IMG/VR virus record: IMGVR_UViG_3300029131_000181
DNA length: 64,000 bases
Origin: a virus
Reading direction: 5' to 3' (one strand)
Part shown: piece after piece, positions 1 through 57,027 of the stretch
Layout of the letters: every line of letters begins with the position of its first letter
How positions within the stretch are numbered: position 1 is the stretch's first letter
Translations under genes and position numbers: made by a program
Notes under the pieces: generated by a model
What the model was told of the DNA's origin: nothing
Database searches by the model: none
Seen by the model: the letters and a program-made list of their open reading frames with translations, nothing else

Positions 1-441
1 ACTGCTTCGAGACAAAAAGTATTTTTTGGCGATTTCCTTATCAGTCATTCCGGCTTTCGCATCTTCCAACATAGCCGCATTGCGAACTTTCGTGGCAGCA
101 GACTGCTTTTTCTTGTTCTTCTTAATCGTAGCTTGAGCGTATTCAGAAACAGTATAGTAGCACTGCTGATAGGTCACGCCATGCTTCTTTGCGATTTCAG
201 CAACCGTCATCCCGGCTTTCGCATCTTGAATCATAGCTTCGTCGAGAGGTGCTCTTTTTGCTTTCTTTGCAAGATTCTTTTCTTTTGCTAGGTCTCTCAC
301 CATGGCATAGCAATAAGAGCTTGAAAAATACGTTTCCTTGGCGATTTCCTTGACAGTTTTGCCAGAAAGATACATTTCCCGGACTTTTTCTCGGTCTTCT
401 TTGACCTGCTGCTTCGCAACATCTTTCTTTGATGCAGCCAT
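1..441 (-). CDS. multi-HTH repeat DNA-binding protein (3' end beyond window edge)
   Basis: ATG at 441 read by eye. Absent from the ORF track because no stop lies in the window. Translation MAASKKDVAKQQ..GKTVKEIAKETYFSSSYCYAMV..GMTVAEIAKKHGVTYQQCYYTV..GMTDKEIAKKYFLS shows repeated HTH-like units. Paralog of the next two genes. Confidence 0.6.
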   Translation of the reverse strand, partial: MAASKKDVAKQQVKEDREKVREMYLSGKTVKEIAKETYFSSSYCYAMVRDLAKEKNLAKKAKRAPLDEAMIQDAKAGMTVAEIAKKHGVTYQQCYYTVSEYAQATIKKNKKKQSAATKVRNAAMLEDAKAGMTDKEIAKKYFLSRSS

Positions 442-445
442 GCAA

Positions 446-964
446 TTATTCCTCACTTTGACAACTTTTACTTTTCCCTGGGCCTGGACTATACCGCTTC
501 ATGGCGCGATATACGCTTCCCTTTTTGAGCCCGTATTCTTCCGCAAGCTCTTTGACAGAAACGCCGTTTTTGTATTTCCTGACCATCTCGGCGTTTCTTT
601 TCTTGCCAGTCTCGATACGGTTTTGGCTGTGGATTTGTCGGCCATTCTTTCCGTGTGCATGAAGAATCCGATAAAAGAGCGTTCCACTGATGCCGTATTT
701 TTCCTGAAGCTCCGGAGATTTTGCGCCCATCTCATATTCATGAATCATCTGGGTTTGCCAGGCTTTCTTCTTTGCTTTTCTCTGCCGGGCCTGTTCTTCG
801 TAAAAGTCCTTCAGACTATATCGGACAGTAGAAACACAAATTTGATACTTTTCGGCCAGCTGTTCCTGGGACATACCGTTCTTGGCATCCTCCAGCATCT
901 TTTCATTTCGCGCCCTGACTTTGTCATGAGTTAGACACACGTGGGTAATCTTGTTAATCGGCAT
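446..964 (-). CDS. multi-HTH repeat DNA-binding protein
   Basis: 172-aa ORF with RBS AAGGAG 10 nt upstream. Three ~50-aa units such as MSQEQLAEKYQICVSTVRYSL, SPELQEKYGISGTLFYRIL and VSVKELAEEYGLKKGSVYRAM resemble resolvase/sigma-region-4 type HTH. Confidence 0.75.
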   Translation of the reverse strand: MPINKITHVCLTHDKVRARNEKMLEDAKNGMSQEQLAEKYQICVSTVRYSLKDFYEEQARQRKAKKKAWQTQMIHEYEMGAKSPELQEKYGISGTLFYRILHAHGKNGRQIHSQNRIETGKKRNAEMVRKYKNGVSVKELAEEYGLKKGSVYRAMKRYSPGPGKSKSCQSEE

Positions 965-1481
965 TTTCGCTATTCTCCTTAGCTCTGGCTTTTACGTTAT
1001 ACTGGTAAATCCCATTTTGATGAAGGATAAGATAACCTAGTGAAGGGCTGATATTTACCTCCCTGCTCAACTCGATAATCGATTTTCGAGGATTTTTCTT
1101 GTAAGCATCAAGAAAAGTTTGGTTCCGCATCTTTTTCTCTTTTTTGAGAGCTGTTTCAATATGATTGTATTTTTGGCTTTCGTACTCTCCGCTCGAATGC
1201 AAGATTGCATAAATACGCTGCATGGAAATGCCGTACATCTTGCCCAATTCTCTGGCCGTCATACCGCCTTTATACTGTTTAACAATTTGCTCATTTCGAG
1301 TGGTAAGTCTCTTCCTCTTTTTTTCAAAATAACGAGGCGGCTCCTGCGTACCTTTTAGAATCTTGTAGCACATCGTTTCTGAAAGATTATAGTCCCTCGC
1401 GATTTCTAAAATCGGCTTTCCATTTTTGTAATCTTCGATGATGCTTTTATTGCGGTTCATGCGTTCTTCTTTGTTTGACAT
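954..1481 (-). CDS. multi-HTH repeat DNA-binding protein
   Basis: ORF 954-1619 trimmed to the ATG at 1481 (GGAGG just upstream), giving MSNKEERMNRNKSIIEDYKNGKPILEIARDYNLSETMCYKIL... Same repeated HTH architecture. Confidence 0.7.
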   Translation of the reverse strand: MSNKEERMNRNKSIIEDYKNGKPILEIARDYNLSETMCYKILKGTQEPPRYFEKKRKRLTTRNEQIVKQYKGGMTARELGKMYGISMQRIYAILHSSGEYESQKYNHIETALKKEKKMRNQTFLDAYKKNPRKSIIELSREVNISPSLGYLILHQNGIYQYNVKARAKENSENAD

Positions 1482-1593
1482 AAAGCCTCCGATAAAAAGA
1501 AAGAGCAGGTTCAAAACTGAGCCCGCCCTAGCCTTTCGGTCGGATTTTGCCCGACCAACGATGTTTTTTGATGCCTTTCGTTCTATATTTTGT

Positions 1594-1621
1594 ATTATAT
1601 GCAATTCGCACAGATGCACAA
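1594..1621 (-). promoter_or_regulatory. motif-class promoter, copy 1
   Basis: Minus strand TTGTGC-ATCTGTGCGAATTGCA-TATAAT (16-nt spacer, GTGCGAA core). Upstream of gene start 1481. Confidence 0.6.
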
Positions 1622-1719
1622 TGTTTTTCTTTCTGGTAATTTATGGTAAGTGTTGTGCAAAAAAATAAGACCACCACCCTTTTTGGGGCAGTGGTCTTGA
1701 TTGCTATTGCTTTTGAAAA

Positions 1720-2169
1720 TCAATCCAGTAGTTTTCCGGCCTTGTATGAGTGGTACAAATAGCTCGGATTACAATAGTAAGTTGCAGTATTAAAATCTGA
1801 GATGTCATCGCTAATGAACGAGGAAAATACATCAATTACATCCTGGACACTAGGAGTGCTAGTACAGTCAAAGATGATGCGCTGGTACACTTTTCCGATA
1901 TCTGTATAAGATGGAACCTTGTAATGGCAGTTAGACACCGTATCATACGTTCCTTCCGGCACAGGAAAAAGCTCACAAATTTCATCGGCAGATTGCTCAA
2001 AGCTCTGGCAGTGAAACACATCCGCTGAGTCGAGAATTGCCTTGACTCCGTTTGTGCCAAGAGCAGAAACCACATCCTTGCGATGATTCCTCGTAACGCG
2101 GCCGATATATTCAATCAGGCTGCAGGTATAAAAGACATCGTTTTTGCTGTAGGTTGCAGTTTCAGTCAT
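1720..2169 (-). CDS. hypothetical protein, translationally coupled partner of the DUF3990-like gene
   Basis: 149-aa ORF whose start overlaps the upstream stop (ATGA at 2166-2169). No motif recognised. Confidence 0.65.
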   Translation of the reverse strand: MTETATYSKNDVFYTCSLIEYIGRVTRNHRKDVVSALGTNGVKAILDSADVFHCQSFEQSADEICELFPVPEGTYDTVSNCHYKVPSYTDIGKVYQRIIFDCTSTPSVQDVIDVFSSFISDDISDFNTATYYCNPSYLYHSYKAGKLLD

Positions 2170-2618
2170 ACTTCAATCGCCTCCTTAAAAGAGAGACATT
2201 TCAAAGCGACTTCCGTGTGAAAGCTGATTTGATGCGTGGGATGCTTGAATTTTGCCAACGCCCAAAAAGCTTCACGGCTAATATCACCGCTTAGAAAGTC
2301 GTTGACGTAGTTCCAAATGGTGTCATCCGCCATGGGTCCTTCCACAATATCATAGTCATGATGTTTGCCCGAACGACATATAGCAATAAAATCAAGCCAC
2401 TCATCACTCATTTCGGGGAATTTCTTAATATTTAGCATAGGAGATTCTGTATATTCAAACACGTTGACAATACCACGAGACCTGCCTTTTTTTGACCAGC
2501 GAGCGGCTTGTTCGTAGTTGCTAGTGCAATAGAATCCCCATGAAAAATCTTTGGCGTACCTTGTTTTTCTGACCTCAGGGTTGCGGACTATTACATCGCT
2601 GCCATGATACAGAACCAT
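2166..2618 (-). CDS. DUF3990-like protein, possible H-Y-E ADP-ribosyltransferase-type fold
   Basis: ORF trimmed to MVLYHGSDVIVRNPE. The N-terminal LYHGS, the FYCTSNYEQA tyrosine segment and VFEYTE fit the DUF3990 signature and an H-Y-E ART pattern. Called from memory, not searched. Confidence 0.6.
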   Translation of the reverse strand: MVLYHGSDVIVRNPEVRKTRYAKDFSWGFYCTSNYEQAARWSKKGRSRGIVNVFEYTESPMLNIKKFPEMSDEWLDFIAICRSGKHHDYDIVEGPMADDTIWNYVNDFLSGDISREAFWALAKFKHPTHQISFHTEVALKCLSFKEAIEV

Positions 2619-2739
2619 TATTATCACTTCCTTGCATATATTATACTTGTTTTTATGTGTTAACACAATCATTTCGTATGATTTTGGTTCCTACGCTTTT
2701 TGCTGAAAGAACCCGAATCAAAGTTTCGTTCTAGGAGTA

Positions 2740-4173: not shown

Positions 4174-4243
4174 TTGTGGTCTCCTTTTCTAAAAAAGCCA
4201 CCGTTTCTGTAGGAAAACAGTGGCAATGTATAAGTGATATGGT

Positions 4244-6514: not shown

Positions 6515-6585
6515 AAGCGAAATTGTGAATGTACGAAAGGCATAAAACCCTTTCGATATAGAATGTTATCTATCGTACAATTTTT

Positions 6586-10702: not shown

Positions 10703-11017
10703 TTATTGATATTCAGAAAAATTCCCTGATTTGTGATTATATTCGTGTTGGTCGAGTTGGCGTGGCTGCATCGAAACAGTGCGCAACGTTCTGAGTCTGT
10801 GCATAACGCCTCCTCTCACCAGCGGCGATAAGGTATCCCTGCCGCTGAGGTTATGAGTCCTAGCTCTGTCGTCTGAATCAGCCAGAATCGCCAGCAACTC
10901 ATCGAGGATGCCGATATAGTTGTCGTCATTGATATACTGGATGGTGTTAATCATGGCCGTTTTCAGTGCATTGATAGGTTCTCCGCGCATCGAGCCGGAA
11001 GTATCGACAACGAACAA
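10703..11017 (-). pseudogene. vWA gene fragment
   Basis: Bases 10907-11015 are ~90% identical to 44101-44209 inside the intact vWA gene and encode FVVDTSGSMRGEPINALKTAMINTIQYINDDNYIGI. The rest of the ORF is unrelated. Confidence 0.75.
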
Positions 11018-17041: not shown

Positions 17042-17087
17042 TTAGTGTGAATTCTATTGTGTGCATAGTATCTTTCGTACAAATTCG

Positions 17088-17115
17088 ATGGTATGAGATT
17101 CGCACGCCGGGTCAA
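17088..17115 (-). promoter_or_regulatory. motif-class promoter, copy 6
   Basis: TTGACC-CGGCGTGCGAATCTCA-TACCAT. Confidence 0.5.
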
Positions 17116-17283: not shown

Positions 17284-18807
17284 TCAGGCAGCCATCTTCG
17301 CTGCGGTTTTGCCCTTCGGACCCTTCTTCCGTGCATTGGCTTCAAGCTCCTTCTTGTTGGTATCATACCAAACCTCGAACTCCTTGAAGTTGTTCAACGC
17401 CCAAATCTCAGGAGAAGCCTTGCGACCGTAAGTTTCTTCCAACAGGTGGATAACTTTGCGGCCAACTTCTTCCATGATTTCGGCATCGTATTTGCCGCCA
17501 CCGCAGTAAAACCCTTCAGGCATAATAATGTCGTATTTAGGGTCAAGAACTTCAAGCCCCGGCTCCAAAACGCGAATGCCTTTGTAGCCAGCTTTGCGTA
17601 CAGCTTCAAATTTGAAGCGGTCCTTTTCGGCAGCATCTGCGTGCGGATATTTTCCATTATACTCATAAATGAGTCTCTGGATATGGTCCACGAAGTCTAA
17701 TCCCAAAAGACTATTTTCGCCCAAGATGTTTCGAACATCAAAGAAGGGGTTGGCAATTCCGTTTTCACCGGCAAATGCCAACATGGGACGTGTGTAAAAC
17801 CACTCCGGCTTGGAAATGGCATTGATTCTTCGCATTTTGCAGTCGTAGCATCCAGTAAGACCGTTGTTCACAGAACGAACAATATTGTTAATTGCAGCTT
17901 CGAATTCTTGCCCGCAATCACGGCATTTGAAGAAGGCTTTTTTGTTGCTTTGAACAGTTACTTCTGAAGCAGAAAGCTTGTTTTTACTACTCCACATGGA
18001 GGCTGCTTTCGGACATTGCGACGCAAGGTCATTGATGCCGGGAACAACCCTCCGACCTACGCAAACTAGGCATCCAGTGTTGCCGTTTTTTACAGCACAA
18101 ACAACATCTCCAATTATGGCTTTGAACTCTTGCCCACAATCCGGGCACACAAAGAAAGCTTTTTTCCCGCTTTTAGCTGTGACTTCTGAAGCGGAAAGCT
18201 TATTTTTATTACTCCACATAGCGGCTGCTTCTGGGCACTGTGACGCAAGGTCATTGATGCCAGGGGCAACTCTTAGTCCTCTGCAAACAGGGCAACCTGT
18301 GTTTCCGTTACTTACAGAATAGACAACGTGTTCGATTTTGGCTTCAAATTCTTCCCCGCAGTCCGGGCATACGAATATCGCCTTTTTGTTGCATTTGACA
18401 GCAATTTCCGAGGCAGACTTTTTGTTTTTGTTACTCCACATAGCTGCAATTTCCGGGTATTTCGACGCAAGGTCGTTGATGCCGGGGATAATCTTTCTTC
18501 CTGCGCAAACAGAGCAACCCGTGAATCCCTTGTCTACAGAACGAACAACATTAAAGATTCTGCTTTCAAATTCCTGCCCGCAATCAGGACACACAAAAGT
18601 GAGTTTTTTATTGCTTCCAGTAGTAACTTCAAAGGCAAGTTTCTTATCTTTTTCGCTCAGCATTGCAGCTACTTTTGGGCAAGCAACAGCAAGGCAATTT
18701 TTCTTAACCACTTCATACGGCATCTCAATGCCAAGAGCCGGAATAGGAGCGCAAGAAGCGCAGTTGCAAGAGTTAGCGTGCATCATAATTTTCATGTTAG
18801 TATTCAT
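17284..18807 (-). CDS. zinc-ribbon repeat protein with C-terminal Vsr/DUF559-like domain
   Basis: Trimmed to MNTNMKIMMH (AAAGGAG RBS). Four 74-aa repeats of the form PGINDLAS..P..AAMWS.KNK.SASEV......FF.CPDCGQEF......V......GNTGC.VC. C-terminal LDFVDH..IYEYNG..H resembles the Vsr-like nuclease core. Confidence 0.75.
   Translation of the reverse strand: MNTNMKIMMHANSCNCASCAPIPALGIEMPYEVVKKNCLAVACPKVAAMLSEKDKKLAFEVTTGSNKKLTFVCPDCGQEFESRIFNVVRSVDKGFTGCSVCAGRKIIPGINDLASKYPEIAAMWSNKNKKSASEIAVKCNKKAIFVCPDCGEEFEAKIEHVVYSVSNGNTGCPVCRGLRVAPGINDLASQCPEAAAMWSNKNKLSASEVTAKSGKKAFFVCPDCGQEFKAIIGDVVCAVKNGNTGCLVCVGRRVVPGINDLASQCPKAASMWSSKNKLSASEVTVQSNKKAFFKCRDCGQEFEAAINNIVRSVNNGLTGCYDCKMRRINAISKPEWFYTRPMLAFAGENGIANPFFDVRNILGENSLLGLDFVDHIQRLIYEYNGKYPHADAAEKDRFKFEAVRKAGYKGIRVLEPGLEVLDPKYDIIMPEGFYCGGGKYDAEIMEEVGRKVIHLLEETYGRKASPEIWALNNFKEFEVWYDTNKKELEANARKKGPKGKTAAKMAA
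17790..18681 (-). repeat. 4 x 222-bp in-frame tandem repeat inside the CDS
   Basis: ACTCCACA landmark recurs at 17989, 18211 and 18433 (period 222). Limits approximate. Confidence 0.8.
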
Positions 18808-18927
18808 GATAGATTTCTCCTTTGTTATCAATAAAAATAAAAAAGCAGCCACCCTTCCCTCTTTTGAGGGCAAAAGCGACTGCTTTACGTTCAATGGGTA
18901 TTGAGTTGTTATTCATGAAGAATTGCT

Positions 18928-19113
18928 TCACTCGTCCAGCATAACCTGCAAACGGGCGTTGAATTCCTTCATGTCGGCGCTTTCCTCGGCTGCAGCAAGG
19001 ACACGCGGATAAATTTCCGGATTCATGCTCTTCAGCATGTTCAGAGTAGAAAGAAGCAGAGGGTTGGTGATAGTCATAGTAAGCATCTCCTTGTTATTCA
19101 TAGTAATGTTCAA
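18928..19113 (-). CDS. hypothetical small protein
   Basis: 61-aa ORF whose stop-proximal region is followed by the next gene. The upstream gene overlaps by 4 nt. Confidence 0.45.
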   Translation of the reverse strand: MNITMNNKEMLTMTITNPLLLSTLNMLKSMNPEIYPRVLAAAEESADMKEFNARLQVMLDE

Positions 19114-19952
19114 ACGTTGGTATTCGTGCGATGGCCTTTCAGCGTGCCCTTGTTGAACTGTGTCAAACGGGCGTGCTTCAGAACAAATCCGTCTTCGAAT
19201 TGAACGTCAACGGCGTTTGTGCTGATGATGCGAATGATGGTTGCTTTCGAGCCATCATTCATGGTCTTGGTCATAGGTCCGCTATACTCGACCTTAAAAT
19301 CGAAAGGAAGCGGCTTATGCTTGGTGCAGCAGGGACAAGAAGAACTGCCGTTATTGATGCAGTGGACAAGAGAATTCACGTGAGTGACGTATTCTTCTCC
19401 GCAATCCGGGCATACAATGACGACCTTCTTGCAGCTATTGGCACTTACTTCACGCGGGGAGAAAGCGTTTTTGCTGCTCCACATTTTTGCCACGGCAGGA
19501 GATGTGGTTGCCAAGTCATTGGTTCCGGGAACGACTTTCATGCCACGGCATACGGGGCAAGTGAAGGTTCCATTCTCGATGTCTTTGACCAAAGAGATGA
19601 TTTTTGTTGTGTACTCTGCATGACAATCAGGGCATACAACAATCACCTTTTCGGGACTGTCACAGCGAACTTCGTCGGGATGAATCGTGTTTTTAGGACT
19701 CCACATAGCTGCAATTTTGGGATACTTGGTAGCCAAATCATTGACTCCGGGAACAAGCTTTTCGCTATGGGTTTCTTCGGCTTTGAATGCCGTAGTTACC
19801 TTACGGTTTTTGACCGTTTTGAATCGGCAGACAGGGCAGGCAGTTACGCCACGCTGCTTAGCTCTAACAAGGTTTGCCTCGTAGGTTGTGTATTTGCAAC
19901 CGCAATCGGGGCAGATGGTGATGACTTTTTCGTTCATGTTAATGTTATTCAT
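19110..19952 (-). CDS. zinc-ribbon repeat protein (paralog of 17284-18807)
   Basis: Trimmed to MNNINMNEKVITICPDCG. Three CPDC..CPVC treble-clef-like units with VPG.NDLAT linkers. Weak RBS. Confidence 0.65.
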   Translation of the reverse strand: MNNINMNEKVITICPDCGCKYTTYEANLVRAKQRGVTACPVCRFKTVKNRKVTTAFKAEETHSEKLVPGVNDLATKYPKIAAMWSPKNTIHPDEVRCDSPEKVIVVCPDCHAEYTTKIISLVKDIENGTFTCPVCRGMKVVPGTNDLATTSPAVAKMWSSKNAFSPREVSANSCKKVVIVCPDCGEEYVTHVNSLVHCINNGSSSCPCCTKHKPLPFDFKVEYSGPMTKTMNDGSKATIIRIISTNAVDVQFEDGFVLKHARLTQFNKGTLKGHRTNTNV

Positions 19953-20008
19953 GATAGTTCCGGGTGCTGCTCTTGATGCAATCTCCACAGCGGGTCGGTC
20001 GCTTCTGC

Positions 20009-20044
20009 AAAACAAAAAGGACAACCTCAAAATGAGGCTGTCCT
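20009..20044 (-). terminator. leader hairpin + U-run between promoter copy 7 and gene
   Basis: Minus strand AGGACAGCC-loop-GGTTGTCCTTTTTGTTTT. Confidence 0.6.
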
Positions 20045-20100
20045 TGCAAAAGCGGAATGTTAAAAATAAATTGGTAAGTGGTATCTTTGATACAACATCT

Positions 20101-20128
20101 ATCATAGCCATCTCGCACACATTGTCAA
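20101..20128 (-). promoter_or_regulatory. motif-class promoter, copy 7
   Basis: TTGACA-ATGTGTGCGAGATGGC-TATGAT. Confidence 0.55.
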
Positions 20129-20129
20129 A

Positions 20130-20169
20130 CAAAAAAAGACCCTGCCCGCATTTTGCTGCGAGCAGGGTT
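20130..20169 (-). terminator. rho-independent terminator
   Basis: Minus strand AACCCTGCTCGCAGCAAAATGCGGGCAGGGTCTTTTTTT, after gene 20189-20509. Confidence 0.75.
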
Positions 20170-20188
20170 TGCTTTTGCACTGTTGTGC

Positions 20189-30304: not shown

Positions 30305-30332
30305 ATCATATCCAATTCGCACGGATGCACAA
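30305..30332 (-). promoter_or_regulatory. motif-class promoter, copy 10
   Basis: TTGTGC-ATCCGTGCGAATTGGA-TATGAT. Confidence 0.5.
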
Positions 30333-30483
30333 GGCAAAATTGTGGCAAAACCGTAGCAAAACAGTGGCAAAGACAAGGTACATGGGACTTGTTCCGTTGC
30401 TGAACAGGAAATGCCAAAAAACAACTGCTTTGCTCAAATATGTCATCTCGTGTATTTTCTTGTCATTTATTGTAAATTCGCGC

Positions 30484-30568: not shown

Positions 30569-31969
30569 ATGATTTATGTTAACCTCGCCATGCCCGTGAT
30601 TTTCTATAAGCAGCTGCCCGGCATCGCTAAGAAGCTGGATGTGGATGCTGATTTTTTGAAAGGCTTTCTCACCAACGCCAGGTGTTATGTCGAGGATGCC
30701 GGAAAAGGTGAAGTGCTTGAGCTGGACAACTCGGCCGACACGATAACGAAAGTTGTCGCAACCCATGAGAAGCGTTTCTATGGCGCGGAAGCCATTGTGG
30801 AATTCGCCAAGAGCAAAGGCGTGGATATTCCTGCACTGAACCATTTTGAACTTGGTGCAGATATCTCTGCCCATGCAACGGAAGACCAAGTTGCCAACAT
30901 CACTGCATTGGCCGCACGAGTCGAGCGCCTCAATAATCGGTACAAGAGTCTTGCCCGGCTTGAAGCCCCGGACGTCATCCTGATGAACGAAGCAAGGATG
31001 GTGCGTGACGCAGTAGAGCAGCTGGAAGATAACAGCGGTACATACTCCCCGGCTCTTGACCAGAACGGGGTTGCCTATCAATCCTTGAAGGATATTGGGT
31101 ATTCTCTTGTCACCGGTTGGGACAAGTCGGTACTTGAAAAGAACAGCAATAAGGATACGGAGGCCACCTTTCCCAAAGAGCCCGACTTTCAAAGGCTGGC
31201 ATCGCTGGTCAAAAAAGCCATCGGAACCCGCACACAGGGTAAGTTTGCGTTTCAAGCGGGGCTGACTCGTGGATATATCAGTAACCTTGCGAACGGCAAC
31301 GCGAAAGCTCAGCCGACCGAGAATACCATCAAGAAAATTGCAAGCGCAACAGATGCTGTCACGGAGAACGAGCTTCGTATCGCCTGTGGGTATGAGCCCT
31401 TGCCTGACGACGGGAAAGACAAGCTCTCTATGCAGCGTGCAAGCATGTCTGATGACGCATGGCAGAAAGACAACGTGGATGCATTCCTCTCTTTTCTGAA
31501 TGAAACGATTCCAATGTCCACTCCTCTTTCGTCCACTGAAATTCTTCAAGCTCTTTTCAAGGAAAAATACGGTGACAAGAACGACCAGATTCTGCTGGAA
31601 AAGGTCTCTGCCCCCGGCACCTATCGTACGGAAGGTACGGCTGCTAATGTCATTCTACCCATTCGTCTTTGTTGGTTCAGCTTCAAGCGGATGCTGATGC
31701 AGACTCTCTATGTAGGACTTATCGGGCATTACAGCAAAAACGATGAGCTGTACATTACCGGATACATTTCTTCTGTGAAAGAGCTGCATGACGCGGTTCC
31801 GGCGCTGCGAGGCGGCATTGATGCGGCCTATGACGCGAGTCTGCCGGAGGGAATCGACATCATGAAGTTCCCGGTATTTTACACGGCTTCCAATGTTCAG
31901 GAAGCATACAAGCGGGTCCAGCAGAAAATCGTCTCCAAAATTGACGAGTCAGCCGCCGTAAGCTTGTGA
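30569..31969 (+). CDS. XRE-type HTH-containing protein
   Basis: 466 aa with RBS AAAGGAG. Internal TRTQGKFAFQAGLTRGYISNLANGN is HTH_3-like. The 344-aa minus ORF opposite is a shadow. Confidence 0.75.
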   Translation: MIYVNLAMPVIFYKQLPGIAKKLDVDADFLKGFLTNARCYVEDAGKGEVLELDNSADTITKVVATHEKRFYGAEAIVEFAKSKGVDIPALNHFELGADISAHATEDQVANITALAARVERLNNRYKSLARLEAPDVILMNEARMVRDAVEQLEDNSGTYSPALDQNGVAYQSLKDIGYSLVTGWDKSVLEKNSNKDTEATFPKEPDFQRLASLVKKAIGTRTQGKFAFQAGLTRGYISNLANGNAKAQPTENTIKKIASATDAVTENELRIACGYEPLPDDGKDKLSMQRASMSDDAWQKDNVDAFLSFLNETIPMSTPLSSTEILQALFKEKYGDKNDQILLEKVSAPGTYRTEGTAANVILPIRLCWFSFKRMLMQTLYVGLIGHYSKNDELYITGYISSVKELHDAVPALRGGIDAAYDASLPEGIDIMKFPVFYTASNVQEAYKRVQQKIVSKIDESAAVSL

Positions 31970-40016: not shown

Positions 40017-40904
40017 TCAGTAAATAAACTTGCATTCCCGGCGTTCCCGGCCATTGCCGCACCAGTAATGCCGCCAGCGGGGAGTTTTGCCTTCCCCATT
40101 CTTTTTGTATTCTTTGGCCGCATTCTCACCAACGGTATATGTCTTGACGTTGATTCGCTGTGCCTTTCCCTGAAACACGAATACCGGGCGGTCACGCTTT
40201 TTGGAAGTTTCCAAGCAGACATCAGGGTTCTTGCTGGCAAGATAGTTGGCGCACAGGATTGCCAGCCGGACATAAGGTGTGCCGCCGTCAAAGACCGAAG
40301 GGACTGCTTCCATCACAGCCGGTACGCTGATACCATTTACTTGCCGCTGCCCTGCTGCCTTTTCCAGGTATTCTTTCGTGCTCCGAGTTGCTTCCGTCAA
40401 ACTCTGATTTTCCTTGGCCCAGGCAGGCAGAGTCAGGAACGTGAAATCATCGTGGCTGCCCTTAGTGGGGCCGACAAGAACGATACCGAAAGCTGTGGTT
40501 TTCTCTTTTTCGTCGAATTCCACATGCACGAACATACCGTTGTAGTCGTAGCTGTCATACACCGGGATAAAGAAATCACGAACCGGGAGTCGCTGCAGGA
40601 TATCCTGATGAATTGCCACGTCATCCGTATCCATCAGCATTTTCTGAAACTCGTAGTCAAAATCATAGACCGTCTTCGTCTGATTCCAGCAGCCAATGGT
40701 AAAGCAGGGAAAAATCTGCGCAGCCAAAACACGCTCAAAACCCGGCGTGTTCATTCTCTGCGCCGCTGTCATGCAGCACAGCATCGCGGACTTGTTGTAT
40801 TCTTCCAGCGTTTTTCCACACGGGTCACTGAATCCAAAATGGTTTCGGGTTTGTTTGGTAACGGCATTCGCCGTCAATGCGATTCTCAGCTGTTCATTGG
40901 TCAT
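40017..40904 (-). CDS. hypothetical protein
   Basis: 295 aa. ATGA overlap with the upstream gene. Confidence 0.65.
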   Translation of the reverse strand: MTNEQLRIALTANAVTKQTRNHFGFSDPCGKTLEEYNKSAMLCCMTAAQRMNTPGFERVLAAQIFPCFTIGCWNQTKTVYDFDYEFQKMLMDTDDVAIHQDILQRLPVRDFFIPVYDSYDYNGMFVHVEFDEKEKTTAFGIVLVGPTKGSHDDFTFLTLPAWAKENQSLTEATRSTKEYLEKAAGQRQVNGISVPAVMEAVPSVFDGGTPYVRLAILCANYLASKNPDVCLETSKKRDRPVFVFQGKAQRINVKTYTVGENAAKEYKKNGEGKTPRWRHYWCGNGRERRECKFIY

Positions 40905-41600: not shown

Positions 41601-42239
41601 TCATAGTCCTTTGACAAAATTCGGGTCGTAGTGGGACAGGACTTCCTCGTTCAAGCTGTATTCGCAGTTGATAGTCGTTGCGTCATCCACATACATGCCT
41701 CGGTTTGCGTAGTATATTCCATCAATATAAATGGCGAACATGACGGACGGCATCAGTGCCTTTTCATTCACTGCGTAAATCAGGTATTCATCCAGATTAT
41801 CCTTGACCACCGCGCTCTTATTGATTTGGGCGATTTGCTGTCCGCCAAGAAATACAGGGCAGCATACTCCTTCTTTTCCAAAACCAATTTTGTAGCTCTG
41901 GTATTCCTCGCCATACAGCTGCATGGCGATAGAATTGTATCCTTGGAGGAATCCGGTTTTTGTATGGATGACGGAAATCTCGCCTACCCTGCGGTTGTTC
42001 TCACAGATAGCAAAAGGGTGTCTCAGAATATCTTTCGTGTTGATGCCGCGCATGTACGCCCTTGCGTCAGCAGCTGGCATGTATTGCAGCAGGAACTTGG
42101 AATCATTCAGCCGGATGCCATAACCTTGCCGCAGCACTTTCGGAATATAGTGTGCCTGCCCGATAACGGCCTTGCCTTTCACGATATCGAAGGTGAACTC
42201 ATATCCTTTCGATTTGGTTTGCTTCACAATCCATTGCAA
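41601..42239 (-). CDS. hypothetical protein
   Basis: 212 aa. TTG start 10 nt after GGAGG. Confidence 0.6.
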   Translation of the reverse strand: MQWIVKQTKSKGYEFTFDIVKGKAVIGQAHYIPKVLRQGYGIRLNDSKFLLQYMPAADARAYMRGINTKDILRHPFAICENNRRVGEISVIHTKTGFLQGYNSIAMQLYGEEYQSYKIGFGKEGVCCPVFLGGQQIAQINKSAVVKDNLDEYLIYAVNEKALMPSVMFAIYIDGIYYANRGMYVDDATTINCEYSLNEEVLSHYDPNFVKGL

Positions 42240-42667
42240 AACTCAATCGCCTCCTTTTGCCTTCTCACTCGCTGGATAACCTTGTAAATACCAGGAACCG
42301 AGAGCTGATATTTTTCGGATAGTTTCTGCACCGGCACGCCGCTCTCGTATTCTCGAAAGATATTCTCATTGCGCGGTCTTTGTCTAATTTTGATGCGCTC
42401 ATTTCTACGGTTTTCAGTCAGGCCCGCATCGTTGGCAACCATGCTGCAATATCCTTCTGCCACGTTGAATTTTGCAATCATTTCCTTGAGAGGGACACTG
42501 GCTTTGTACGCAGCAAGAATTTCGGCCTTTCTAGCATCCTCTACCTGCGCCAACTGAATTCTGGCCTCCTGTTTCGCGTCGTCTAACGCTCGATAGCATG
42601 TACGGACGCTCAACCTGTATTTTGCGGCAAGCTCCTCAATGGAATAGCCGTTGCCGTAGTCTTTCAT
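42224..42667 (-). CDS. multi-HTH repeat DNA-binding protein (fourth paralog)
   Basis: YSIEELAAKYRLSVRTCYRAL and VPVQKLSEKYQLSVPGIYKVI are the same unit type as genes 1-1481. The start is uncertain: ATG 42667 has no RBS, and an AAGGAG lies at about 42735. Confidence 0.6.
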   Translation of the reverse strand: MKDYGNGYSIEELAAKYRLSVRTCYRALDDAKQEARIQLAQVEDARKAEILAAYKASVPLKEMIAKFNVAEGYCSMVANDAGLTENRRNERIKIRQRPRNENIFREYESGVPVQKLSEKYQLSVPGIYKVIQRVRRQKEAIEFCNGL

Positions 42668-42750
42668 GATATTGCAATTTCGCTCAATCAACTTTTTGCT
42701 TGCAAATTTTGAGATGGTACTCAACTCCTTTGCTTTACGCTTTATTTCTG

Positions 42751-42778
42751 ATTGTCTGCAATTCGCACAAATGGGCAA
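42751..42778 (-). promoter_or_regulatory. motif-class promoter, copy 14
   Basis: TTGCCC-ATTTGTGCGAATTGCA-GACAAT. Confidence 0.55.
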
Positions 42779-43180: not shown

Positions 43181-43570
43181 TCACCATCCTCCACGACCAA
43201 GGCGAACCCACTCGGTTTTCGTGGTGTGCGAAGTATGATGAGCATATACTTCATATTGCAGCTTGCGCTCATACTCTGCTCTTGACGCTTGTTCTTCCTT
43301 CAGCTCCTTGACTGTGGCGAGCAGCTTATCTTCTCGACCTTCCGCTTCACCCTTGGCAAAAGCTGCTTTTTCGGCTTCTTCGATGCGCTGGTATCTGCTC
43401 TTTCGCTCTTTCTCGATGTAGAGTAACCCGTTGGCTACTGCATCAAGGAACGCTTGCATCTCAGATTCCGGGATAGGTTCTTGGCTTTCTCTGCTTTTGG
43501 ATATACAGCAAAAGCCCTCATCGTCGTAATGGATGAAATAGGGTGAGTTCGGAACCTGTTGTACTCGCAT
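43181..43570 (-). CDS. hypothetical coiled-coil protein
   Basis: 129 aa with RBS GGAAGGAAG. Charged helical middle region. Confidence 0.6.
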   Translation of the reverse strand: MRVQQVPNSPYFIHYDDEGFCCISKSRESQEPIPESEMQAFLDAVANGLLYIEKERKSRYQRIEEAEKAAFAKGEAEGREDKLLATVKELKEEQASRAEYERKLQYEVYAHHTSHTTKTEWVRLGRGGW

Positions 43571-43689
43571 AGGGCACTTCTTCCTTCCGTCTCAAAGACA
43601 ATTTGCCGGGACTGTCTCCCGTTGCCCGCTGCTCGCCGCGTGGAGGCTGTCTTTTGGAGCAGCTGCGCGGACAAAACCGCGCTTTTGAG

Positions 43690-45384
43690 TTACATCTCTG
43701 CGTTAAACAGGTTGCGGAGCTTGTAGGTGATATCCTCGCTGTTGCCGACGATAGCTGCCGCTTCGTTGATGGAAGCGAGCTCCGAAAGACTATCCGCTGC
43801 GTAGTTGTAGCTGATGGTGTAAATGGGGATATCCATACCGGCAATGATGTTCTTCGTATCGGAGAAGCCATATCCGGTATTGTTGTCACCGTCCGTGAGC
43901 ACAAAGATGATGGGCGTGCAATTCCCACCCAGTTCCTGAGATTTCTGGTAGATGCGGTCCATAGCAACGCAAAGACCGTTGTACATTGCGGTGCTGCCGT
44001 TCGCATCGAGGGAGTTCACGGCACCCTTATACAGAGTTTTCTGGGTCAGAGAGAACTGGTTAATGGGCAGGTATTCCCTGACATCTGAATCAAAGCCAAT
44101 GATGCCGATATAGTTGTCGTCATTGATATACTGGATGGTGTTTATCATCGCGGTTTTCAGGGCATTCAGGGGTTCGCCGCGCATCGAGCCGGAAGTATCG
44201 ACAACGAACTCTGCCACAATAGGAATGCCTGAGTCCTTCTCTTCTTTCCAGACACTCTGAGCCTGTGCGATGGTGTTGCCATCGTATGCCTTGCCTGTAT
44301 AAGCATAGTCGTCAAGACCATTGAATCCGTCCTTGGTCGCCTCTGCCTGGTTCTGAGCGCAGAAGGAAACGAAGGCAGCAATAACTTCCTTCTTCTCCGC
44401 AGAGACATTCCCGATGGAATACAGAGGATTATCGTGCCGTACACCGAACGGGATGAACTCGTAGTTGCGCTGTAAGGTCGGGTCATTCTGATAAGACTGA
44501 TACTCCATGACAACGCCGTCCACGATGCCCTTGTCTGCCGACTGGACCATCTGCTGGGTCGTGAAGGATACGAGAGGGACGTTCGCTTGAAATTTCTGGA
44601 AATTCTCAACAGCAGCCGTATCGACAATCGTATCGCTGCCGCTGCTCGCAAGAGCCTCAAGCAGAAAATTAAGACCCGTAGCACTTGTGTAGGGGTTCGA
44701 GTATCCCATCATGAGTTTGCCATCGATGGTTGCGTTCAGAACGGAAGAAACAGACGCTTCACCGTATTCAGAGCGAAGCATATCCCCTGTCTTCTTTGAT
44801 ACGAGAATACCCGCCACATTGCCGACCAGACGGTCAGCCTCAACGGTCAATTCTACGCCCTCGTTCTTCACCAGCTCGCCAAAGAGCGTATTTGAGGGGG
44901 TATAGCACTCGGGCTGATACTTTCCCGTCGAGATGTACTCAGCCGCCGTACCGGACGGAATGGAGCGCAGGGAGACACTCATAGTCTTGTCTCCGGAAGT
45001 CTTGTTGTGCTGGGCGTTGAACTTCTTTGCCATTTCGGTCAGGAAAGAATCTGAGCCGGACTCTGCTGCTTTCTCGCCAGAGGAAAAGATTTCGATGTTC
45101 ACATCTCCGTTTCCTACGACCACGAATGGGTAGGAGGATTCAATGTCGGGCAGTTCATCCTTTGCATCAAGGAATTCAGAGACATCCAGCTGCTGAGGAT
45201 TGACCTTGACCTCCTGCACGCCGATGCGCTTCATCTTGCTGCTCAAGTTGGCATATGCCTGCTCGGACGTCATTGTACTAATGCTGACGTTTGAGTCCCT
45301 CATCACCGTCATCGAAAATACTCCGAGAACAACGCCTACCACAGCAATGGTTGCAACCACAGGGAAAATGTTCTTTTTTGTCAC
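43690..45384 (-). CDS. membrane-anchored vWA-domain protein
   Basis: GTG start after AAAGGAG. N-terminal TM IFPVVATIAVVGVVLGVF. C-terminal MIDAS VVDTSGSMRGEP..TAMYNGL..LTDGDNN. Confidence 0.85.
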   Translation of the reverse strand: MTKKNIFPVVATIAVVGVVLGVFSMTVMRDSNVSISTMTSEQAYANLSSKMKRIGVQEVKVNPQQLDVSEFLDAKDELPDIESSYPFVVVGNGDVNIEIFSSGEKAAESGSDSFLTEMAKKFNAQHNKTSGDKTMSVSLRSIPSGTAAEYISTGKYQPECYTPSNTLFGELVKNEGVELTVEADRLVGNVAGILVSKKTGDMLRSEYGEASVSSVLNATIDGKLMMGYSNPYTSATGLNFLLEALASSGSDTIVDTAAVENFQKFQANVPLVSFTTQQMVQSADKGIVDGVVMEYQSYQNDPTLQRNYEFIPFGVRHDNPLYSIGNVSAEKKEVIAAFVSFCAQNQAEATKDGFNGLDDYAYTGKAYDGNTIAQAQSVWKEEKDSGIPIVAEFVVDTSGSMRGEPLNALKTAMINTIQYINDDNYIGIIGFDSDVREYLPINQFSLTQKTLYKGAVNSLDANGSTAMYNGLCVAMDRIYQKSQELGGNCTPIIFVLTDGDNNTGYGFSDTKNIIAGMDIPIYTISYNYAADSLSELASINEAAAIVGNSEDITYKLRNLFNAEM

Positions 45385-48210: not shown

Positions 48211-48307
48211 CTTCGAAAAGAGGTAATTATGCGCAAGCAGACACGGCATCGATTCGTGGCGACCAACTACAATCACTACAAATGTCTCTTGCCGTTTCTC
48301 TTGTACA
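48178..48307 (-). ncRNA. candidate sRNA (promoter copy 17 to terminator)
   Basis: ~125-nt unit bounded by a motif promoter and a strong terminator. No RBS-preceded ORF. Confidence 0.4.
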
Positions 48308-48313
48308 ATTCTT

Positions 48314-56964: not shown

Positions 56965-57027
56965 TAGCAAGTGCTTAGCAAGTTTTTAGCAAGTTCGTAG
57001 CAAGTATGCAACAAGCTCATGACAAGT
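56965..57027. repeat. 6 x 11-bp phased repeat TAGCAAGTnnn
   Basis: Units start at 56965, 56976, 56987, 56998, 57009 and 57020. The last two are degenerate (CAACAAGC, TGACAAGT). Confidence 0.8.

Follow-up and report, generated by a model that had tools for sequence, protein, structure and literature searches.

The first 1,481 nucleotides of the 64,000-nucleotide stretch of viral DNA analysed here (hereafter the window; IMG/VR record IMGVR_UViG_3300029131_000181) contain three adjacent genes, which we call A, B and C, whose products consist of repeated helix-turn-helix (HTH) units, and a fourth gene of the same kind, D, lies at a distant site. What such proteins bind, and to what end, is the question raised by this locus. 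The initial annotation had suggested that they read GTGCGAA, a word placed at a fixed position in the spacer of the element's promoters. The reading we favour, tentatively and at slightly less than an even chance, is that A to D are expressed early, bind DNA as monomers at multiple sites and thereby regulate transcription of the element itself. Its parts differ in strength: specific DNA binding by A to D is very likely, while a role for them in regulating the element's own transcription could about equally well be right or wrong.

The open reading frames were found and translated where they had been reported, with the correction that all four lie on the minus strand:

1 to 441, minus strand: gene A, partial, encoding the N-terminal 146 aa from a Met codon at 441; the reading frame leaves the window at position 1
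283 to 405 and 133 to 258, minus strand: the two complete HTH units of gene A in the window; a third starts near 96
446 to 964, minus strand: gene B, 172 aa, with three HTH units (800-925, 647-772 and 485-610)
954 to 1481, minus strand: gene C, 175 aa, with three HTH units (1344-1469, 1185-1310 and 1008-1139)
1490 to 1486, minus strand: GGAGG, the ribosome-binding site of gene C
42224 to 42724, minus strand: gene D, 166 aa when read from TTG, with three HTH units (42569-42697, 42419-42544 and 42260-42385)

Gene A is partial, as the initial annotation had it, and is the N-terminus of a much longer protein: its full-length orthologue in a related contig (L001:10524-11477) has 317 aa and six HTH units. 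Three or four repeats had earlier been counted in each protein of the trio; B and C have three, as does D, and A has six. Genes B and C overlap by 11 nt. The fourth paralogue exists, as had been proposed, though the start assigned to it at ATG 42667 is probably wrong. This codon is replaced by one for Ile in a relative (L108), and the residues encoded just upstream of it (KKLIERNCNI) fill out helix 1 of the first unit; since 42667 is not conserved and the upstream residues complete that helix, the true start is probably TTG 42724, which sits immediately behind AAAGGAG. Four relatives (L104, L120, L138 and L167) carry a truncated, two-unit variant of gene D. The proposed paralogy of the four genes is supported by pairwise identities of 20-31% (35-56 bits), and further alignments that are out of register by one unit, both among and within the proteins, identify the unit as an internal repeat.

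The unit is a three-helix HTH of ~40 aa, and successive units follow one another with a period of about 50-57 aa, joined by basic (K/R-rich) helical linkers. An alignment of the 11 units encoded in the window gave the consensus RN..I...Y(K).G.s..ELA.KYgiS....Y.IL. Genes A, B, C and D encode 6 + 3 + 3 + 3 units, which account for the whole of each protein, so that the description of these proteins as built only from HTH units was correct. In Pfam searches, each protein gave two to three distinct matches to HTH_28, HTH_23 or Mor (E 1e-9 to 2e-14). An AlphaFold2 model of the gene B protein (mean pLDDT 80.7) contains three three-helix bundles, with helices at residues 13-28, 33-40 and 44-50; 65-78, 83-90 and 94-103; and 119-132, 137-144 and 148-158, and each linker in the model is one long helix running into helix 1 of the next unit. 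Units of this type are generic enough for the target to be host DNA.

The recognition helices are the most strongly conserved parts of these proteins. Among orthologues of 81-98% identity, variable positions make up 17% of the recognition helices (the lowest value), 43% of the linkers and 79% of the C-terminal tail. Gene B is 81-100% identical among relatives and encodes three units in 67 of 70 sampled copies.

Among curated models, the unit is best fitted by NCBIfam NF040785 ('CD3324 family'), which describes uncharacterised 82-aa proteins of a single unit, whereas the proteins here have three to six units each; a literature search for this family found no paper. Against its cut-off of 65 bits, the gene A orthologue (P0041) scored 81.6 bits, though only as the sum of three stretches, while B (57.6), C (51.7) and D (52.6) fell short, and a 12-unit relative (P0039) reached 270 bits over 10 stretches. 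Among solved structures, PDB 2LVS (the CRISPR-repeat-binding protein Cbp2) was by far the best match to the unit profile (E 1.1e-10), the alignments covering each of its two HTH units. The NCBIfam model for Cbp1 (HTH_Cbp1, NF040595; equivalog cut-off 140) gave 52.4 bits for the gene A orthologue, 24.8 for C, 21.4 for B and no match for D; we rejected membership of the Cbp1 equivalog, all scores being far below 140 bits, though the unit is homologous. A to D represent a variant of Cbp1/Cbp2-type tandem-HTH DNA binders that is carried by a phage.

Other families shared the HTH part and nothing else. The initial annotation had named a match to a family of unrelated role, such as the small terminase subunit, as the outcome that would speak against its proposal, and every match of this kind was limited to the HTH. 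Pfam Mor (PF08765) scored 30-47 bits for B, C and D (cut-off 24.9), always at profile positions 54-99 of 107. For C this Mor match had an E of 1e-9, and PHROG 836 ('late transcriptional activator') matched C with an E of 4e-14; PHROGs 836 and 532, which carry the same label, likewise align with the HTH part only. Mor proper was rejected: profile positions 1-53, the N-terminal dimerisation domain, are unmatched, and the proteins have tandem HTH units only. A sigma-70 factor was rejected on region-4-type HTH matches that all lie below cut-offs, with no match to region 2, the part that recognises the -10 element and binds core polymerase.

The resemblance to sigma factors bears on a different role, in which early-made, sigma-region-4-like heads would bind host promoters, -35-like sequences or RNA polymerase itself and so redirect or stop host transcription. 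Units that resemble the HTH domains of both sigma-70 region 4 and LuxR/GerE are consistent with such a takeover, as are a promoter of early appearance and the location of the genes in a part of a large virus-like element given over to accessory and anti-defence functions. However, Cbp2 and CD3324 both match the unit better than sigma region 4 does, and nothing indicates a host target; we regard this role as improbable.

Even less probable, in our view, is a non-regulatory origin, with the proteins being free-standing remnants, or relatives, of the modules by which homing endonucleases or transposases bind DNA, or else serving packaging or partition as a small terminase or centromere binder. 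The window is rich in HNH/DUF4379 proteins and IS200/IS605 genes, and weak matches were found to HNH and homing endonucleases and to IS630, IS3 and IS21 transposases. These matches are confined to HTH regions, with no DDE or nuclease domain, and genes A to D neither contain nor adjoin a catalytic domain. Remnants would also be hard to reconcile with strict conservation: genes A, B and C are all intact in ~70 independent contigs, and their recognition helices are conserved. PHROG small-terminase profiles matched protein B alone (E 1e-5 to 1e-4), at its N-terminal HTH only; the proteins have no oligomerisation domain, and neither a large terminase nor a ParA gene lies nearby.

Regulation of the element's own transcription, the reading we prefer, draws on how the genes are themselves expressed. 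The following transcription signals frame them:

1667 to 1698, minus strand: strong intrinsic terminator ending the upstream unit
1594 to 1621, minus strand: motif promoter of C-B-A, with -35 TTGTGC (1621-1616), GTGCGAA (1611-1605) followed by TTGCA, and -10 TATAAT (1599-1594)
1494 to 1529, minus strand: terminator-like hairpin and T-run in the C-B-A leader (AGGGCGGGCTCAGTTTTGAACCTGCTCT then TTCTTTTT), weaker
42751 to 42778, minus strand: motif promoter of gene D, with -35 TTGCCC, GTGCGAA (42768-42762), TTGCA and -10 GACAAT

A second terminator directly follows gene A, outside the window (L001:11478-11499). With terminators on both sides (1698-1667 and after gene A), C-B-A is a self-contained operon. 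Its gene order is conserved, and its promoter is unchanged in a lineage with 87% protein identity.

Both promoters belong to the dominant promoter class of the window. The initial annotation had counted 18 motif promoters, and all were recovered: 14 perfect sites of the GTGCGAA-N5-TAnAAT type on the minus strand and four degenerate ones, in intergenic gaps. Their consensus is TTGCnn-N4-GTGCGAA-TTGCa-TAcAAT; the pattern has 23 matches in the window against 7.3 +/- 2.7 in shuffles, and GTGCGAA is the sole dominant intergenic word in the window. An intrinsic terminator precedes the first gene after 8 of the 18 promoters (the weaker hairpin in the C-B-A leader included), and at three promoters a -10-like TTGTAC(G/A)A, a possible sigma-dependent pause site, lies a few bases after the -10 hexamer. 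Since the -35 and -10 hexamers resemble sigma-A elements, host RNA polymerase may suffice for initiation, and these promoters are probably used early, by host sigma-A. Against the reading we prefer, transcription from a promoter of this class is expected of any early gene.

The earlier statement that nothing else in the window looks like a dedicated factor for the motif promoters was only partly right. The Pfam annotation of the 64-kb window (from a genome of ~255 kb) contains no gene for a sigma factor or RNA polymerase, but a 466-aa HTH_3 protein (30569-31969, plus strand) had been overlooked. A sigma factor or other true regulator may also be encoded in the remaining ~190 kb, about three quarters of the genome.

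Being transcribed from motif promoters, C-B-A and gene D are members of that regulon, which argues against A to D as its obligatory activators. Membership is equally compatible with feedback repression, for which the interval between -35 and -10 is a classical operator site, and with the loading of an antitermination factor. The co-occurrence of genes and motif in relatives is uninformative, since every relative found (81-100% identity) has both the HTH-array genes and the motif; contigs with the motif and no match to gene B were seen, these being sampled in short pieces only. Diverged contigs with the motif include IMGVR 3300023499_000220 (346 kb), 3300045988_181067 (389 kb) and 3300029228_000258. 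No comparable promoter motif was found in the 13-23 kb around each of four HTH-array genes of unrelated elements. The GTGCGAA spacer element is one candidate target, but we think it unlikely that the HTH-array proteins bind it directly.

Loading of an antitermination factor would take a form like that of lambda Q, whose binding element lies between the -35 and -10 of PR'. One or more of the HTH-array proteins would bind the -24 to -14 element (GTGCGAATTGC) and modify RNA polymerase for read-through of intrinsic terminators, both in leaders and between genes. This would be the initial proposal in its strongest form. The motif here likewise sits between -35 and -10, the terminators in front of the first genes at 8 of the 18 promoters would be natural targets for read-through, and TTGTAC(G/A)A at three promoters could supply the pause. 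The leader sequences differ, so that the feature common to these promoters is the motif embedded in them. Read-through is also needed by the AAA ATPase gene past gene A, because there is no space for a promoter behind the gene A terminator. Yet the leader of the C-B-A trio itself has a terminator-like hairpin, nothing points to contact with RNA polymerase, and short terminated transcripts could instead be small RNAs. Membership of the lambdoid Q antiterminators was rejected: no significant similarity to any Q family was found in sequence or fold, the Pfam model Phage_antitermQ giving an E of 0.065 with C only. We consider Q-like loading quite unlikely.

A second candidate target is a short repeat. 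The hexamer TTGCYA occurs four times in a row, at a period of exactly 11 bp, in each of two arrays, one at 30332-30370, which abuts a motif promoter, and one at 56965-57003; the three-unit pattern has four matches in the window compared to none in 100 shuffles. A further match at 4210-4226 was discarded as part of a terminator hairpin. TTGCYA is the same type of hexamer as the -35 of the motif promoters, and phased sites one helical turn apart would suit a tandem-HTH reader.

These arrays are central to a further alternative, in which A to D act as architectural or array binders in the manner of Cbp1, coating phased short repeats such as TTGCYA or repeats of the host, for example those of CRISPR; proteins that bound host CRISPR repeats would thereby be an anti-defence device. 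The nearest characterised relatives, Cbp1 and Cbp2, bind repeated DNA, and some neighbouring genes resemble anti-defence genes. An AcrVA2-like gene lies two genes downstream of D, with an Apyc1-like lactamase also near, and a hypervariable slot adjoins the trio on its upstream side, occupied by DUF3990 and a gene of 149 aa in the window, by one of 359 aa in a relative (L001) and by a 344-aa gene together with an AcrVA2-like gene in another (L003). Against this, the two TTGCYA arrays are the only ones in 64 kb and neither lies within 10 kb of the C-B-A trio, the window contains no CRISPR-like array, and no phased DNA arrays were found beside the distant HTH-array genes, and a repeat search in two contigs (L073 and L074) returned coding repeats only. 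We think array binding of this kind unlikely.

The element that carries these genes is large, virus-like and widespread in the human gut. Near-identical copies of the genes were found in no fewer than 64 contigs of IMG/VR and in numerous assemblies from ENA and Logan, with contigs reaching 254-260 kb (for example ERZ27295075:k141_197416 and ERZ28615637 scaffold_68). Accessory and anti-defence-type genes are present in the window, and in 2.4 Mb of sampled related DNA the only HTH-array families are the four described here. A megablast of 20 kb against GenBank phages and a tblastn of the six-unit protein against phages returned no match, and a tblastn of C gave only weak two-unit matches (in Bacillus and Caulobacter phiCbK-like phages and a few Burkholderia phage records) to proteins annotated as 'HTH DNA binding protein' or hypothetical. 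No relatives were found in GTDB species genomes, the sole match being an unrelated TrmB-type regulator. An Rfam scan of the window identified one element, of an HDV-like ribozyme family described from Faecalibacterium prausnitzii, and a helicase encoded in the window shares 52% identity with a helicase of Faecalibacterium phage Lugh; both are only hints of Faecalibacterium as the host.

Beyond this element, proteins of similar construction are numerous. A search of 1.84 billion representative proteins (clusters at 50% identity) with the unit profile yielded 7,965 matches at E <= 1e-3, of which 953 reach E <= 1e-10 and 42 reach E <= 1e-30. Among the best 150 matches, 100 have at least five matched units, 33 have at least eight, and the maximum is 17 units in a protein of 1,557 aa; 90 of these 150 have no more than 65 aa per unit and are therefore essentially HTH-only. 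Nine of ten matches examined are unnamed in their sources, and the tenth is labelled a specialised sigma subunit. Genomic context varied across four sampled cases: a 241-kb contig with a TnpB-type gene and small open reading frames of unknown function, a 283-kb contig with four HTH-array paralogues among ankyrin-repeat genes, a chromosomal site adjoining a transposase gene, and a 14-kb contig on which CotJ spore-coat genes are also found. We found no description of multi-, poly- or tandem-HTH arrays outside Cbp1 and Cbp2 in the searchable literature.

Arrays as long as 12-17 units prompt one to ask if HTH units can be concatenated into long modular DNA readers. HTH-only arrays might constitute an undescribed class of such readers, with one unit per sub-site of 8-11 bp and the linker helices as spacers, and diverged paralogues, kept as sets by large phage-like elements, might mark an element's own promoter class or TTGCYA arrays or mask host repeats such as CRISPR; we see only a small chance that this is so. 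If true, modular arrays would in principle be a natural, extensible scaffold for DNA recognition, with a logic comparable to that of TALE and zinc-finger arrays. If the proteins read the spacer element or the TTGCYA arrays, they would offer a handle on the timing of expression in a widespread, uncultivated gut element of ~255 kb, and a first functional entry into a large unannotated class whose only characterised relatives are Cbp1 and Cbp2. If they are generic early regulators, they are a well-documented but ordinary family of paralogues.

Early, monomeric, multi-site binding that regulates the element's own transcription is the reading we prefer, and it can be put as a mechanism. Each protein, in which three-helix HTH units of the Cbp1/Cbp2, CD3324 and Mor C-terminal type are strung together, would be a monomeric, multi-headed, sequence-specific DNA binder. 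The basic linker helices tether the units such that successive recognition helices would contact successive sub-sites of one DNA molecule, spanning ~25 bp for three units and 50-60 bp for six. The genes are transcribed from the dominant promoter class of the element, the trio as a terminator-bounded operon. Architecture, homology of the unit, operon structure, promoter context and conservation are established by the data, and the binding of DNA, its target and the direction of regulation are inferred. The proteins could act by either of two routes. One would be feedback on the GTGCGAA-class promoters, where the proteins may occlude the conserved -24 to -14 element or load a factor there; the other would be to turn on a later class of promoters.

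Parallels to parts of this arrangement can be drawn from several known systems. Aca proteins are small HTH repressors that are encoded beside variable anti-defence genes and bind inside a strong early promoter. The trio resembles them in its setting, with a hypervariable slot holding AcrVA2-like or DUF3990 genes directly upstream of conserved genes. An Aca protein, however, has a single HTH, acts as a dimer and shares a transcript with acr genes, whereas the slot and the trio are kept apart by a terminator and a separate promoter.

The middle and late activators Mor and C of phage Mu (PF08765; PDB 1RR7, 9L0X) are also paralogous phage regulators that occur as a set. They are proteins of ~130 aa with a single HTH and act as dimers; in A to D, the N-terminal dimerisation domain is replaced by covalent repetition of the HTH. 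Mor and C activate promoters that lack a -35 element, a trait to which nothing points here. Tandem HTH units with a period of ~50 aa are likewise found in the eukaryotic Myb R1R2R3, Pax paired and Tc3/Sleeping Beauty domains, which read adjacent major-groove sub-sites as monomers. This resemblance is at the level of the fold only: those proteins join two or three units to other domains, while here the array is the whole protein.

The closest parallel is with Cbp1 and Cbp2, the CRISPR-repeat binders of archaea (Sulfolobales and Desulfurococcales). Cbp1 has three HTH domains that arose by duplication and are aligned 5'->3' along the 24-bp repeat, where the protein blocks internal promoters (PMC10883916), and in Cbp2 of Hyperthermus butylicus (PDB 2LVS) a basic linker tethers one HTH domain to a second (PMC3597662). 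Like them, A to D consist only of tandem three-helix HTH units, born of duplication and joined by basic linkers. They differ in origin, A to D coming from a bacterial virus-like gut element and Cbp1 and Cbp2 from the crenarchaeal chromosome, and in setting, with four paralogues here, three of them in one operon, and no CRISPR array nearby in the window. They also differ in length: Cbp1 and Cbp2 have two to three units, while the proteins described here have up to six and their relatives up to 17.

Sequence elements recur behind the motif promoters, the 18 promoters in the window that carry GTGCGAA between the -35 and -10 elements. In eight of them an intrinsic terminator lies about 30-140 nt behind the promoter and ahead of the first gene, and units with such a leader terminator would give rise to short RNAs or to attenuated, antitermination-dependent transcripts. 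Three motif promoters have a further -10-like element, conserved a few bases past the -10 hexamer, which may act as a leader motif or cause sigma-dependent pausing.

1611, 6603, 7919, 16009, 17105, 30322, 38409 and 48331: motif promoters followed by a terminator
~6575-6585, 17078-17088 and 48303-48313, minus strand: -10-like element TTGTAC(G/A)A(A/T)AGA (repeat family D5)

A pattern search of the window also located two phased arrays with the sequences TTTTGCCA/TTTTGCTA and CTTGCTA, both kept in two related contigs (L006 and L007).

30332-30370, minus strand: four TTGCYA units at an exact 11-bp period
56965-57003, minus strand: four TTGCYA units at an exact 11-bp period

The three-unit form of this pattern matched four times in the window versus none in 100 shuffles. 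The first array directly adjoins the -35 element of the motif promoter at 30322. The second comes after the terminator of a gene for a 1098-aa helicase and has an inverted GCAAG at its end.

Proteins built only from the HTH unit of the trio (genes A, B and C) and of their fourth paralogue, gene D, form a wider class (P0039-P0182) with a maximum of 17 units. HTH-only arrays among relatives include a 12-unit protein of 632 aa and a 1001-aa protein on a 241-kb contig, and in the sampled contexts (loci L073-L076) a 283-kb contig carries four HTH-array paralogues amid ankyrin-repeat genes. Gene D itself varies in length: in four related contigs the frame is lost past unit 2, leaving a 127-aa, two-unit variant (L104:9238-9621, L120:3892-4275, L138:3183-3566 and L167:1933-2316), and its C-terminal tail is variable in the remaining contigs too.

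A hypervariable slot, which differs among otherwise near-identical genomes, sits immediately upstream of the trio's promoter, and another gene like one of its occupants lies close to gene D.

Window 1720-2672, minus strand: DUF3990 gene and 149-aa gene (slot)
L001:8113-9192: 359-aa gene (slot)
L003:7132-9241: 344-aa gene and AcrVA2-like gene (slot)
Window 40017-40904: another AcrVA2-like gene, two genes downstream of gene D

Repeats, mobile-type genes and a ribozyme are found elsewhere in the window.

10907-11015 and 44101-44209: two copies of a 109-nt segment, 93% identity
14728-15837, minus strand: 369-aa protein with transposase PHROG matches
17848-18513, minus strand: three tandem 222-nt coding repeats, 69-76% identity
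30037-33812, plus strand: block breaking the minus-strand gene series
43594-43663, minus strand: HDV-like self-cleaving ribozyme

The 222-nt repeats lie inside an ORF (17284-18894) for a 536-aa protein with matches to HNH-endonuclease PHROGs, and the adjoining gene (19110-20180) holds segments related to them. Copies of the 109-nt segment occupy unrelated places, a 104-aa ORF (10703-11017) and the interior of the VWA-domain gene at 43690-45384; two diverged contigs (L146 and L175) carry it at 97% identity. The plus-strand block encodes a 466-aa HTH_3 protein, an IS200-type Y1 transposase and a 443-aa protein (Pfam Aq_aa04).

The ribozyme is intergenic, with gene 43181-43570 on one side and the VWA-domain gene (43690-45384) on the other. 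An Rfam scan of the window gave this match alone (RF02682, 'HDV-F-prausnitzii'); it covers the full model, exceeds the gathering score of 44 with 60.4 bits, and hints that the element is Faecalibacterium-associated.

Just past the window's left edge, the trio is followed by the gene for a 304-aa AAA ATPase (L001:11527-12441). This gene begins 28 nt behind the terminator of gene A, a gap too small for a promoter. NCBIfam and PADLOC searches gave no family match for the 232-, 142- and 161-aa proteins that follow. PADLOC relates the ATPase itself to IetA, a protein from the Iet system of phage defence (E 1.3e-55), and its score against NCBIfam IteA is 170 bits, well under the cut-off of 510.
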